A DNA stretch of 64,000 nucleotides. Source: Squalus acanthias. Lineage: Eukaryota. Below are positions 3,493-49,783 of this stretch, one piece after another. The notes beneath the pieces are model-generated. The model had not been told where the DNA came from, searched no databases, and saw only the letters and a program-made list of their open reading frames with translations. The stretch spans positions 62,001 through 126,000 of the forward strand of contig CM059432.1 in the NCBI GenBank assembly GCA_030390025.1. The letters are read 5' to 3'. Every line of letters starts with the position of its first letter. Within the stretch, counting starts at the first letter, position 1. Both the position numbers and the translations under genes were made by a program.

Positions 3493-3615
3493 ATGGCGGC
3501 TGTGAGGGCAACCCTGGTTATGGACAATGGATCTGGAATAACTAAGGCCGGGTATGCAGGGGACGATGGTCCCTGTGTTTCTTTTCCCTCCGTCGTGGGG
3601 CGTCCTCAAGAACAG
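3493..3615 (+). CDS. Divergent actin-like protein copy 1, coding exon 1 (41 codons)
   Basis: [25 protein letters not shown]...GRPQEQ has the actin phosphate-1 motif. Kozak-like ACCATGG, upstream acceptor ttcctgcag (3482), donor CAG|GTGAGT at the conserved actin codon 41/42 position. Confidence 0.92.
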
Positions 3616-3991
3616 GTGAGTCCTACAACGAGACATTGGAAGGAGATTCAATCCTTTGCTTTGGGTGTAAGGTGGGGGCTGGGTCTGCCTTTCCATATTT
3701 CAAACAGCCAGCTGAATGTTAATGTATCGTCCCGGGGCTGAGATCAACCTTAACCCTCGCTGGCTCTTGCTCTTGCAGTGAGCAATGTCCACAGTGTGTG
3801 CGTGTCCCTTTCCCCTGTTGTGGTGGTTTTTAGATATCAGTGCGGGGCTGTTCCAGTTTGGGTTTTTACTCGAACCCTACTCCTTGGCCCCAGTTTCTCG
3901 AAAAACAGGCTGCATCTCTGATGAAGTGAATGCTAGGGCTTGCTCCAATTGGATTGCGGCCAGAACAAATAAACCAAACGGCAAACATGTT

Positions 3992-6634
3992 AGAAACATA
4001 GAAACAGAAAAATAGGAGCAGGAGTCGGCCATTCGGACCGTCGAGCCTGCTCCGCCATTCAATATGATCATGGCTGATCCTCTATCTCAATACCATATTC
4101 TCGCTCTCTCTCCATACCCCTTGATGCCTTTTGTGTCTAGAAATCTATCTATCTCTTTCTTAAATATATTCAGTGACTTGGCCTCCACAGCCTTCTGTGG
4201 TAGAGAATTCCACAGGTTCACCACCCTCTGAGTGAAGAAATTTCTCCTCATCTCAGTCCTAAATGTCCTACCCCATATCCTGAGACTGTGACCCCTCGTT
4301 CTAGACCCCCCAGCCAGGGGAAACATCCTCCCTGCATCCAGTCTGTCTAGCCCTGTCAGAATTTTATACGTTTCAATGAGATCCCCTCTCATTCTTCTAA
4401 ACTCTAGTGAATACAGGCCTAGTCGACCCAATCTCTCCTCATACGACAGTCCTGCCATCCCAGGAATCAGTCTGGTGAACCTTCGCTGCACTCCCTCTAT
4501 GGCAAGTATATCCTTTCTTAGGTAAGGAGACCAAAACTACACACAGTACTCCATGTGTGGTCTCACCAAGGCCCTGTACAACTGTAGTAAGACATCCTTG
4601 CTCCTGTACTCAAATCCTCTTGCAATGAAGGCCAACATGCCATTTGCCTTCCTAACTCCTTGCTGCACCTGCATGTTTGCTTTCAGTGACTGGTGTACAA
4701 GGACACCCAGGTCCCTTTGTACATCAGCATTTCCCAATCTATCACCATTTAAATAATACTCTGCCTTTCTGTTTTTCCTACCGAAGTGTATAACTTCACA
4801 TTTATCCACGTTATACTGCATCTGCCATGTATTTGCCCACTCACTCAACTTGTCTAAATCGTCTTGAAGCCTCTTTGCATCCTTCTCACAACTCACAATC
4901 CCACCTAGTTGCGTGTCGTCAGCAAACTTGGAAATATTACATCTGGTTCCCTCATCCAAATCATTGATATATATTGTGAATAGCTGGGGCTCAAGCACTG
5001 ATCCCTGCAGTACCCCACCAGTCACCGCCTGCCACCCCAAAAAAGACCCATTTATTCCTGCTCTCTGTTTCCTGTCTGTTAACCAATTTTCAATCCATGC
5101 CAGTATATTACCCCCAATACCATGTGCTTTAATTTTGCACACTAACCTCTTATGTGGGAATTTATCAAAGGCCTTCTGAAAATCCAAATACACCACATCC
5201 GTTGGTTCTCCGTTATCTAGTCTACCAGTTACATCCTCAAAAAAATCCAGTAGTTTTGTCAAACACGATTTCCCTTTCATAAATCCATGTTGACTTTGTC
5301 TAATCCCGTTGATATTTTCTAAGTGTCCTGTTATCACATCCTTCATAATAGACTCTAGCATTTTCCCTACTACTGATGTTAGGCTAACCGGTCTGTAGTT
5401 CCCTGTTTTCTCTCTCCCTCCTTTTTTAAATAGTGGGGTTACATTTGCCACCCTCCAATCTGCAGGAACTGTTCCATAGTCTATAGAATTTTGGAAGATG
5501 ACAACCAATACATCCACTATTTCCATGGCTACCTCTTTTAGTACTCTGGGATGCAGATTATCAGACCCTGGGGATTTATCAGCTTTCAGTCCCATTAATT
5601 TCTCCAGCACTATTTTTTTACTAATACTAATTTCCTTCACTTCCTCCTTCTCACTCGACCCTTGGTTCCCTCACATTTCTGGGAAGTTATTTGTGTCCTC
5701 TTCCCTGAAGACAGAACCAAAGTATTTGTTTAATTGCTCTGCCATTTCCTTGTATCCCATTATAAATTCTCCCGTTTCTGACTGTAAGGGACCTACATTT
5801 GTCTTCACTAATCTTTTTCTTTTTACATACTTGTAGAAGCTTTTAAAGTCCACTTTTATGTTCCTTGCAAGTTGACTCTCATACTCTATTTTTCCCCTCT
5901 TAATCAATCTCTTGGTCCTTTTTTGCTGAACTCTAAACTGCTCCCAATCCTCAGGCTTGCTACTTTTTCTGGCAACTTTATATGACTCCTCTTTGGATCT
6001 AATACTATCCTTAATTTCTTTTGTTAGCCATGGTTGGGCCACTTTTCCTTTTGTGTTTTTGCACCAGAAAGGAATGTATAACTTGCAATTCATGCATTCG
6101 TTCCTTAAATGTTAGCCATTGCCTATCCACCGTCATGCCTTTTAATGAAGCTCCCCAATCTATCATAGCCAACTCACTCCTCATACCTTCGTAGTTTCCT
6201 TTGTTTAGATTTAGGACCCTAGTTTCGGATTGAACTACTTCACTTTCCATTTTAATGAAGAATTCTATCATGTTATCATCACTCTTCCCTAAAGGACCCC
6301 GCACAACAAGATTATTAATTAACCCCTTCTCATTGCACAATACCCAAACTAGGATAGCCTGTTCCCTAGTTGGCTCCTCAACGTACTGGTCTAAAAAACA
6401 ATCTCGTACACACCCCAGGGATTCATCCTCCACAGTATTATTGCTAATTTGGTTTGGCCAGTCTATATGTAGATTAAAGTCTCCCATGATTACTGTAGTA
6501 CCCTTGTTACATGCATCTCTAATCTCCTGTTTGATGCCATCCCCAACATTACCACTACTGTTTGGAGGCCTATAGACAACTCCCACCAATGTTTTCTGCC
6601 CCTTGGTGCTTCTTAGCTCCACCCAGACTGATTC
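3992..6634 (-). mobile_element. 5'-truncated CR1 in the actin copy-1 intron (frameshifted ORF2), TSD TGTT
   Basis: Endonuclease and RT ORF pieces at 6011..6622, 5671..6093, 4537..5640 and 4087..4491. Empty site aacaTGTTggtc near 40645. Confidence 0.92.
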
Positions 6635-7019
6635 TGTTGGTCATGCGTTAGAGGACTGGTGTGCGTGGAAGGTTGGCAGTGAGAGCTCGACTATCTGTTA
6701 CGCACCCCACCTGTTTTCCTGCCCCTGTCTTCAGTGGCGAGGACAATCCGGTGGGTGAGGACAATCCGGCGGGCGATCTGCTCTCACCAGCTTCCATCCT
6801 TGCCAAAGTTGAAAATGACTCCCAAATTGCATTGGCTCTTTTCTACCCTCTCCGTTCCAATCAACTCTACGTTGCTTTGTAAGTTTTGCTATTTAACTAT
6901 AAGATGATATTAAAGTATTGCTCCTCGATCTCCTGTTGCACTGCACACGGGCTGGCAAGACCAAGCGTCATCTTCAGATTAAGTGGGCAATGTGGACATA
7001 GATTCCAATGTCTACATTG

Positions 7020-47494: not shown

Positions 47495-48062
47495 TTTTAA
47501 AAATTTGTTCCTGGGATGTGGGTTGTCGCTGGCAAGGCCAGCATTTATTGCCCATCCCTAATTGCCCTTGATAAGGTGGTGGTGAGCCGCCTTCTTGAAC
47601 CGCTGCAGTCCGTGTGGTGAAGGTACTCCCACAGCGCTGTTAGGGAGGGAGTTCCAGGATTTTGACCCAGTGACGATGAAGGAATGACGATATACATCCA
47701 AGTCAGGATGGTGTGTGACTTGAAGGGAAACTTGCAGGTGGTGGTGTTCCCATGCTCTGCTGCCCTTGTCCTTCTAGTTGGTAGAGGTCGCGGGTTTGGG
47801 AGGTGCTGCCGAAGAAGCCTTGGCGAGTTACTGCAGTGCATCTTGTAGATGGGACACACTGCAGCCACGGTACGGCGGTGATGGAGGGAGTGAATGTTTA
47901 AGGTGGTGGATGGGCGGCCAATCAAGTGGGCTGCTTTGTCTTGGATGGTGTCGAGCTTCTTCAGTGTTGTTGGAGCTGCAGTCATCCAGGCAAGTGGAGA
48001 GTATTCCATCACACTCCTGACTTGTGCCTTGTAGATGGTGGAAAGGCTTTGGGGAGTCAGAA
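47495..48062 (-). mobile_element. LINE 3' end (CR1/L2 group) sharing its tail with the SINE at 1053-1912
   Basis: ORF 47545..48012 MEYSPLAW...LDTIQDKAA...SLHHRRTVAA, followed by the shared tail. Confidence 0.7.
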
Positions 48063-48787
48063 GGTATCATCTCAGGCCTAAATGGCCAATCCCTTTATCC
48101 TGAGACTATGCCCCCTAGTTCTAAACTCTCCAGCCAGGGGAAACAGCCTCCCAGCATCTACCCTTGGACGTTTCAATGAGATCAGCTTTCAATCTTCTAA
48201 ACTCCAGAGATTATAGGCCCATTCTATTCAATCACAGGACAGCCCTCTCATCCCATGAATCAATCTAGTGGACCTTCGTTGCACCTCCTCTTAGGCAAGT
48301 AAATCCTTCCTTGGGCAAGGAGACCAAGACTGTACACAGTACTCCAGGTGTGGTCTCACCAAAGCCCCATATAATTGCAGCAAGACTTCCTTACCCCCTT
48401 TCAATAAAAGCTAACATATCATTTGCCTTCCTAAATGCCTGCTGTATCTGCATGTTACCAACATTTACTCGTCTCTCACCTTTTTATTCTATCTTTCTAT
48501 TCTTCCTACCAAAGTGGATCATTTCAGATTCCCCCACATTATACTCCATCTGCCACCTTCTTGCCCAATCACTTAACTGCTCCATCCCCATATCCCTTGA
48601 TTCCCTTAATGCCCAGAAACCACTAACCCTCGCTTTACAATGTACAGTGCTACTGAATCCTGACCCAAATCATTTCAGCCACAATGATACAAAAAATTGA
48701 CTTGAATACAAATCTGGAGCATGTTTGTGTAAAACACTCCTGCCTGGTTTATTGTGAATTCATCCTTTGTTTTATTCCCCATTCTAG

Positions 48788-49783
48788 AGTGTGATGGTGG
48801 CAATGGGTCAGAAGGACAGTTATGTTGGTGATGAAGCCCAGAGCAAGCGAGGGATTCTGACCCTGAAGTACCCCATTGAGCACGGGATTGTGACCAACTG
48901 GGATGACATGGAGAAGATCTGGCACCACACCTTCTACAATGAGCTGCGAGTGGCCCCAGAGGAATATCCTGTTCTCCTCACAGAGGCACCTCTCAACCCC
49001 AAAGCCAACCGGGAAAAGATGGCCCAGATCATGTTTGAGACCTTCAACACATCGGCCATGTATGTTGCCATTCAAGCTCTGCTGTCCTTGTACGCCTCTG
49101 ACCGCACAACTGGCATTGTGCTAGATTCTGGTGATGGTGTGACCCACACTGTGCCAATCTATGATGGGTATGTCTTGCGTCATGGCATCCTGCAACTAGA
49201 CCTGGCTGGCCGGCATCTCACTGACTACATGAAGAAGTTCCTGACTGAACGTGGGTATTCCTCAGCTGAGAGGGAGATCGTGAGTGACATCAAGGAGAAA
49301 CTTGCCTATGTGGCCCTAGATTTTGAATCTGAGATGCAGACGGCTAGCTCTTCCTCATCCTTGGAGAAAAGTTACGAGCTCCCTGATGGCCAAGTAATCA
49401 CCATCGGCAATGAACGTTTCAGGTGCCCAGAAGCCCTCTTCCAACCCTCCTTCATTGGACTAGATTCTGCTGGGATCCACGAGACCATTTACAACAGCAT
49501 CATGAAATGTGACCTAGAGCTCAGGAAGGATCTGTATGCCAACACCGTCTTGTCTGGTGGTTCCACCATGTTCTCTGGTATCACTGATCGGATGCAGAAG
49601 GAAGTCACAGCCTTGGCTCCGAGCACAATGAAGATTAAGATCATTGCTCCGCCTGAGAGGAAGTATTCAGTGTGGATCGGAGGATCCATCTTGGCTTGTC
49701 GCTCCAACTTCCAGCAAATGTGGATCAGCAAGCAGGAGTACGATGAGTCTGGGCCCTCTGTAATCCATCGCAAGAGGTTCTAA
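48788..49783 (+). CDS. Divergent actin-like protein copy 2, coding exon 2 (full protein 372 aa)
   Basis: Acceptor attctag|AGT; intact ORF; 10 amino-acid differences from copy 1. Confidence 0.95.

Follow-up and report, generated by a model that had tools for sequence, protein, structure and literature searches.

Actins of vertebrates are among the most constrained proteins, and the surfaces at issue in this report serve filament assembly, myosin and cleft-binding partners. The actin-like paralogues D-ActL1-3 of the Drosophila obscura group and Arp53D (PMC7038667, PMC8291977) are lineage-specific duplicates of canonical actin that have been retained with fast surface divergence, and for which testis expression and positive selection by the McDonald-Kreitman test are shown in flies (PMC7038667). 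NAP1 of Chlamydomonas and the actins of Chromodoris nudibranchs and of sponges are divergent actins that exist beside a conventional one, and two of them, NAP1 and the sponge actin, have replaced the tyrosine of the latrunculin pocket (Y69; Y71 in published numbering; PMC12444908, PMC12050087). Mammalian ACTBL2 is a single intronless gene, a faster-evolving offshoot of cytoplasmic actin, and sequences like it have been reported down to cartilaginous fishes (PMC7870945). This report describes a window of 64,000 nucleotides from the 3.7-Gb genome of Squalus acanthias (contig CM059432.1, referred to as C8, positions 62001-126000) and the two divergent actin genes in it, D2w and D3w, which belong to a family of six complete divergent genes at the tip of the contig (the D family, D1-D6).

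The D family works most like the Drosophila actin-like paralogues and less like resistant actins of the NAP1 type. It is likewise a lineage-specific duplicate, derived from the neighbouring near-canonical (N) family, but it differs in being a recent tandem array, found in a vertebrate and next to the near-canonical genes from which it derives, and in that selection on it is not robustly shown. With NAP1, Chromodoris and sponge actins it has in common changes at the drug contacts D184 and R210; Y69 is kept, however, the latrunculin pocket is not enriched in changes, and the family is known here from sequence only. The one-intron actins of Squalus are intron-poor like ACTBL2 but have one coding intron and comprise at least 16 genes in two clusters. 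Genes of the GPBP1 family, used as the synteny marker of ACTBL2, map to contigs C2 and C15, not to C8. Likeness to ACTB and ACTG1 consists of 86% identity over exon 2, an intron at codon 41/42 and the ATP-binding motifs, whereas the canonical cytoplasmic pair of this genome, rebuilt on contigs C18 and C24, has five coding exons and lies near fascin genes, and the D proteins have neither the acidic N-terminus nor C374 and are shorter by three residues in the Thr-rich loop.

The explanation we prefer, with a probability of about one half, is that the D family represents a specialised non-canonical actin in birth-and-death evolution. The near-canonical copies and the canonical genes would cover ordinary actin function, and because that function is supplied elsewhere the D surface would be free to remodel while the core stays under purifying selection. 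The protein is predicted from its residues to keep the fold and the nucleotide cleft and to lose the normal filament, myosin and partner contacts; it would fold and bind nucleotide in a narrower role than that of ordinary actin. Copies would turn over by birth and death, some of them, possibly both window copies, being likely to decay. Restricted, perhaps germline, use is a guess made by analogy. An initial annotation of the window had proposed either a toxin-resistant or decoy actin or a specialised one, and the latter is the better of the two options, in that an amplified, divergent and probably functional family is supported. One genome holds a series that runs from canonical genes through about nine near-canonical one-intron copies to a young array at a ratio of nonsynonymous to synonymous change (dN/dS, omega) of about 1; as the array is still 85-88% identical to beta-actin, its changes are few enough to map which contacts go first, and it may offer a snapshot of actin turning into an actin-related protein.

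Both window genes lie on the plus strand. Each has a coding exon of 123 bp, separated by a GT-AG intron (codons 41/42) from a second one of 996 bp that runs through the stop, and the open reading frame is of 372 amino acids (Table 1). Compared with the beta-type actin of the same genome (contig C18, rebuilt from five coding exons, with 2 differences from the primate beta-actin record P0097), they differ at 63 and 64 positions. All ten changes named in the initial annotation are present in both copies (G42S, G146D, R177Q, D184H, loss of F200-T202 with T203S, R210S, E270D, L349R, T351N and C374R), and the motifs DNGSG, DSGDG and LSGG as well as H73 are kept as claimed; the unchanged block spans residues 47-100. 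Further changes in the window copies include R39Q, H40E, A26G/R28C/A29V/V30S and V287L/D288E/I289L, and the acidic N-terminus of conventional actin is replaced by MAAVR in these and the other four D copies. The proteins belong to the fold family PF00022: residues 43-375 match actins in the PDB at E 1e-196, and the sequences are 85-87% identical to those of ordinary actins. Of the 16 nucleotide-binding residues, 13 are those of beta-actin, with M16I, T303S and Y306F as differences and G156C added in D4 and D6. Structure prediction of exon 2 from a 30-row alignment gave a mean pLDDT (predicted local distance difference test) of 36 and was unusable. Changes are paired across subunit contacts, namely R39/H40 with E270, the 200-203 loop with 287-289, and the D-loop with 167-172, 349-351 and 374; since both sides of several contacts are changed, the D protein would be expected to assemble into filaments differently or badly, and not to take the place of beta-actin. 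At position 146, the substitution G146V compromises myosin II motility and has a dominant inhibitory effect in yeast (PMC4422724).

The amplification seen in the window is real and larger than the window shows, for C8:35-229 kb holds six complete divergent copies and two lone first exons. A genome search returned 84 actin matches, 16 of which are long single-exon matches on C8, where the stretches 1-526 kb and 35.15-35.28 Mb were read for gene models. Beside the D family are six near-canonical genes of the same one-intron structure (N1-N6), which differ from beta-actin at 12-16 positions. A second cluster on C8 has four genes: B1 (71% identical), the near-canonical B2 and B4, and B3, which carries a stop. 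Near-canonical one-intron actins number about nine in the two clusters (C8:273-487 kb and C8:35.17-35.25 Mb). The N exons are nearly identical, yet the flanks of N1 and N3 barely align (exon-limited concerted evolution), and the few changes in these genes cluster at residues 260-278.

The sequences point firmly to descent of the D family from the near-canonical one-intron family on the same contig, exon 1 having split early and exon 2 later. The D copies differ from N3 by 6.2-6.7% in exon 2 and by about 23% in exon 1. At synonymous sites exon 1 is closer to B (5 of 23 codons differ) than to N (9-10 of 23), and exon 2 shows the reverse order, being closer to N (19/297 vs 71/289). We infer that the family branched off long ago and that gene conversion from N later renewed its exon 2, which then diverged again. 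The D flanks differ among copies by 1.3-1.8% only, and the amplification is therefore recent. The deletion in the 200-203 loop and changes at R210, E270 and C374 occur in all six copies, G146D and D184H in five, L349R and T351N in four, and G42S and R177Q in two. Assembly artefact was considered as an explanation: most copies are real paralogues, because their flanks are 1-2% apart and they carry different insertions. Haplotype duplicates could be present among the closest pairs (D4/D6, N3-N6), and an assembly gap at C8:235 kb may hide one more exon 2.

B1 (C8:35167279-35172970) is a much older divergent one-intron actin with an open frame. It has 34 changed sites in common with D, above chance (p 0.001), which fits repeated release of the same surfaces. 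Nine more actin-like genes, intronless and of 45-66% identity, occur on contigs C16, C3, C2, C5, C19, C1 and C919, some in tandem pairs and two with frameshifts; by their sequence they resemble retroposed actin-like genes.

Purifying selection on the D family is established despite an omega of about 1. Stop codons are absent from D where about 4 are expected among 108 counted changes (P about 0.02), and in each of the six complete copies the frame and the splice sites are intact. Replacements in the window copies are more conservative than neutral (p 0.0001 and 0.0003), also at hydrophobic non-contact sites (p 0.001). Residues 47-100 are protected, 2 of 54 sites being changed against 11 expected (scan p 0.008), and the changes common to all six copies avoid positions kept in ten divergent actin-like proteins (3/116 vs 23/254, p 0.03). 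Exon 1 has stayed open across a much older divergence, at an omega of about 0.4-0.6 relative to N. At the ATP residues alone, 1 of 16 changed in the D lineage, which is not significant.

Rates in exon 2 are otherwise unlike those of conventional actin, at an omega of about 1 vs 0.1. Unweighted pairwise dN/dS is 0.67-1.41 among D and 0-0.11 among N copies; branch codon models give 0.08 for B, 0.10 for N, 0.7-0.96 for the D stem and 0.9-1.1 for the D crown, and equality of D and N is rejected (p about 1e-6). Site models on the D paralogues, proposed with the initial annotation, place 34-45% of sites near zero and prefer a positively selected class (M2a over M1a, p 0.009), but once codons 176 and 278, both with multi-base changes, are left out this preference is lost (p 0.22). 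Eighteen per cent of informative site pairs are incompatible with one tree, and a spatial test for recombination gave no significant signal (p 0.69). At non-CpG sites exon 2 is 2.7 times more variable than the near flanks, with synonymous sites raised equally and the far flank equal to the exon. The faster exon was discarded as proof of selection on account of the equal synonymous rise, the equally variable far flank and the 7 of 22 synonymous variants common with N; a polarised nonsynonymous to synonymous count of 98:10 was also dropped, since its filter loses synonymous changes unevenly, and likelihood models were used instead. Positive selection in D is not established.

Expression was sought in 14 listed sequencing runs from five studies, none of which rose above 0.14 of the sampled words; reads of four of them were compared, on the 3' flank only. 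Run X2 (organism B, taken to be RNA by guess) gave a 750-base contig at depth 191, 92% identical over window positions 9008-9316, which continues into the end of an actin frame where M369, H372 and N374 are present and the stop is intact. Since the initial 205 bases of this 3' flank are specific to the six D copies, the contig is a D-type orthologue. By this comparison the loss of C374 evidently predates the species split, the site having changed again since in both lines, and the six complete D copies evidently arose after the split from that other species with a D-type gene. Run X1 (organism A) gave two contigs of low depth (3.7 and 2.3) and 98-100% identity, one closest to D1, which may be DNA and are too thin to count as expression; runs X7 and X9 gave nothing on the 3' flank, which is no proof of absence. 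Protein searches returned no D orthologue among the best 8000 candidates or the 10 candidates scored, a result that is weak as evidence of absence, and an atlas search returned generic actin clusters only. No account of the family was found in searches of open-access papers, although a phylogeny of vertebrate actins that PMC7870945 cites may include the one-intron genes.

Redundant copies drifting to pseudogenes, surplus beside about ten near-canonical one-intron actins and showing a constraint that is a relic of earlier function, would be the leading alternative; we regard it as possible though unlikely. Several results weigh for it and against a specialised actin. Omega = 1 for D is not rejected in the branch model, the average being indistinguishable from 1, and dN and dS rise together. 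Changes hit eukaryote-invariant sites (49/230) as often as variable ones (32/140), as expected in decay (conservation classes from 175 of 188 fetched actins), and those that differ among copies show no avoidance of the core (17/116 vs 36/254) and are not significantly conservative (p 0.13). CpG decay has altered 8 of 12 CGN arginine codons in the family; D4 and D6 carry the damaging changes H73R and G156C, D4 also G74R and W340L; and two first exons stand alone. In both window copies and both lone exons an insertion separates the promoter-like block from the inferred 5' exon, a feature absent from D1, D4, D5 and D6 (the start of transcription is placed by homology with N1), so that the R177Q-bearing window copies are, by sequence, likely among those most disturbed at the inferred start. 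Transcription of the two window copies was demonstrated in none of the runs, all 14 of which stayed within 0.14 of the sampled words. Pseudogene drift is countered by the six intact reading frames, the conservative changes and the protected 47-100 block, the exon 1 that stayed open, and the D-type 3' end with an intact stop that is abundant in a likely RNA run of a species 8% apart.

The initial annotation had linked the changed residues to toxin targets. Fifteen residue sets were tested on three change lists, then with tolerance matching and mutation weighting, against a background of 53/370 in the window copies; the extended sets, an 80-residue list of filament contacts and the cross-link site K50 are our own assumptions. 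The sets for phalloidin, latrunculin alleles, ATP and myosin follow PMC1852557, the Arg-ADP-ribosyltransferase face and T148 sets PMC4699905 and PMC5310789, and the named filament contacts PMC7247010. Most toxin sets were not significant over background: latrunculin-resistance alleles (2/8) and assumed latrunculin pocket (3/16), phalloidin sets (1/3 and 4/21) and barbed-end cleft (5/21). Y69 is kept as well, and latrunculin resistance through D184H and R210S is not supported. Toxin residues taken together reach 6/19 on the paper-based lists (p 0.04-0.08) and 16/68 with the assumed ones (p 0.006-0.02), but fall to 8/41 outside filament contacts (p 0.15-0.2). Filament contacts themselves are changed at 21/80 positions on the assumed list (p 0.001-0.003) and at 8/30 of those named in PMC7247010 (p 0.05-0.10). 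The apparent toxin-site matches thus seem to arise mainly because toxins bind the same surfaces as filament contacts do. The enrichment at filament contacts leans in part on the assumed list and is without a control for solvent exposure; family-wide, with the deletion as one event, it is 24/80 (p 0.02-0.03), and it loses significance when toxin sites are taken out of the contact list (p 0.1-0.25).

The most enriched single set is the Arg-ADP-ribosyltransferase docking face, with four of its eight residues changed in the window copies and six when the whole family is counted (p 0.002-0.08, depending on the background). Most other toxin sets are not enriched, and overall the overlap with toxin sites is only modestly above chance. 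The docking face speaks for an arms race in which bacterial actin-modifying enzymes (Arg177 ADP-ribosyltransferases and cross-linkers) drive the changes at 176-179 and 270-279, leaving a resistant back-up as NAP1 is for latrunculin, an explanation that we consider rather unlikely. The family value of p 0.002 persists even with CpG weighting and becomes about 0.03 when corrected for 15 sets and 0.09 for 45 tests. E270 is changed in all six copies; E270D gave yeast a large measure of resistance to iota toxin, whose modification R177K abolished, the loss of R177 being fully protective (PMC4699905), so both window proteins are expected to be poor transferase substrates. Residues 176, 272 and 279 are named as toxin-facing isoform differences (PMC5310789), codons 46, 176, 210, 269, 270, 289, 317 and 374 changed more than once, and the raised variability of exon 2 and the M2a result given above would also agree.

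Set against an arms race are the small size of the docking set, one of 15 tested, and its overlap with an inter-strand filament contact (R39-E270, H40-G268; PMC7247010). C272A and F279Y are common actin states, found in 74 and 122 of up to 175 homologues. R177 is kept in four of the six D copies, R177Q is a CpG transition, and it recurs in the stop-bearing relative B3. Latrunculin, phalloidin and toxin-only sites are not enriched, the rate signals meet the objections already described (equal synonymous rise and far flank, dependence on codons 176 and 278, 18% conflicting site pairs), and a back-up actin would hardly be expected to lack the acidic N-terminus or to carry G146D and L349R. A bolder version is doubtful: tandem vertebrate actins diversified by bacterial enzymes, in which the R177/E270 face is rewritten copy by copy with compensating interface changes that yield a self-compatible, toxin-insensitive polymer. 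Were this version true, no vertebrate actin family shaped by an arms race would precede it, and an arms race in general would make the array a natural test of whether vertebrate actin can escape bacterial enzymes. That the genes encode decoys which soak up toxins or effectors is very improbable, although a multi-copy, fast-changing protein poorly suited to normal filament function would suit this role. A decoy should keep or improve the recognised residues, yet no D copy retains E270, two have lost R177, and changes affect the barbed-end cleft (G146, L349, T351).

Table 1. Coordinates of the two actin copies and associated features, numbered from the first nucleotide of the window
Feature	Position	Strand	Remarks
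Promoter-like block of copy 1	2651..2741	+	homologous to TATA/CCAAT-like region upstream of N1; TATA-like motif altered; putative role
LINE-end fragment, about 560 bp, between promoter-like block and putative 5' non-coding exon of copy 1	2742..3302		gap vs D1, D4, D5, D6; multi-copy repeat 2740-3304
Putative non-coding exon, 5'-UTR intron and acceptor (CAG ending 3482) before copy 1 ATG	3303..3492	+	from homology with N copies, not RNA
Copy 1 (D2w) coding exon 1	3493..3615	+	codons 1-41, then GT donor
Copy 1 intron	3616..8009	+	4394 bp, LINE fragments for the most part
Duplicated unit	7236..19410	+	97.8% identity to 48014-60193
Copy 1 coding exon 2	8010..9005	+	codons 42-375
Copy 1 marks in exon 2	8415-8417; after 8483; 8685-8687	+	R177Q; 9-bp in-frame loss; E270D
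D-type 3' UTR	9006..9316	+	first ~205 bases only in six D copies
Element about 745 bp at same site of copy 2 (promoter-like block/5' exon)	39222..39964		26-nt terminal inverted repeats
Copy 2 (D3w) coding exon 1	40150..40272	+	
Copy 2 intron	40273..48787	+	8515 bp
Copy 2 coding exon 2	48788..49783	+	
Copy 2 marks in exon 2	49193-49195; after 49261; 49463-49465	+	R177Q; 9-bp loss; E270D

Upstream of the coding exons, positions -318 to -51 of D1 align with N1 at 77%, and the promoter-like block in the window is 98% identical to that of D1. Two unrelated elements (2742-3302 and 39222-39964) have inserted within the same few bases, each ahead of a different D copy, and these twin insertions suggest a hot spot at an open promoter.

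Fragments of long interspersed elements (LINEs) are dense across the window. Retrovirus-like frames, or frames of long-terminal-repeat (LTR) elements, occur at C8:14.6-22.3 kb and C8:189.8-194.8 kb (protease, polymerase and envelope-like by eye), the latter directly behind the lone first exon at 188.7 kb. Also by eye, a Harbinger-like transposase frame (27964-29196 of the window, minus strand) faces Myb/SANT-like partner frames (25741-27669, plus strand). An uninterrupted CR1-like endonuclease/reverse transcriptase frame of 980 amino acids lies at 33528-36470 (minus strand) and is adjoined by an esterase-type ORF1 at 36446-37399, and a tandem array with a 69-bp unit occupies 37622-38555.

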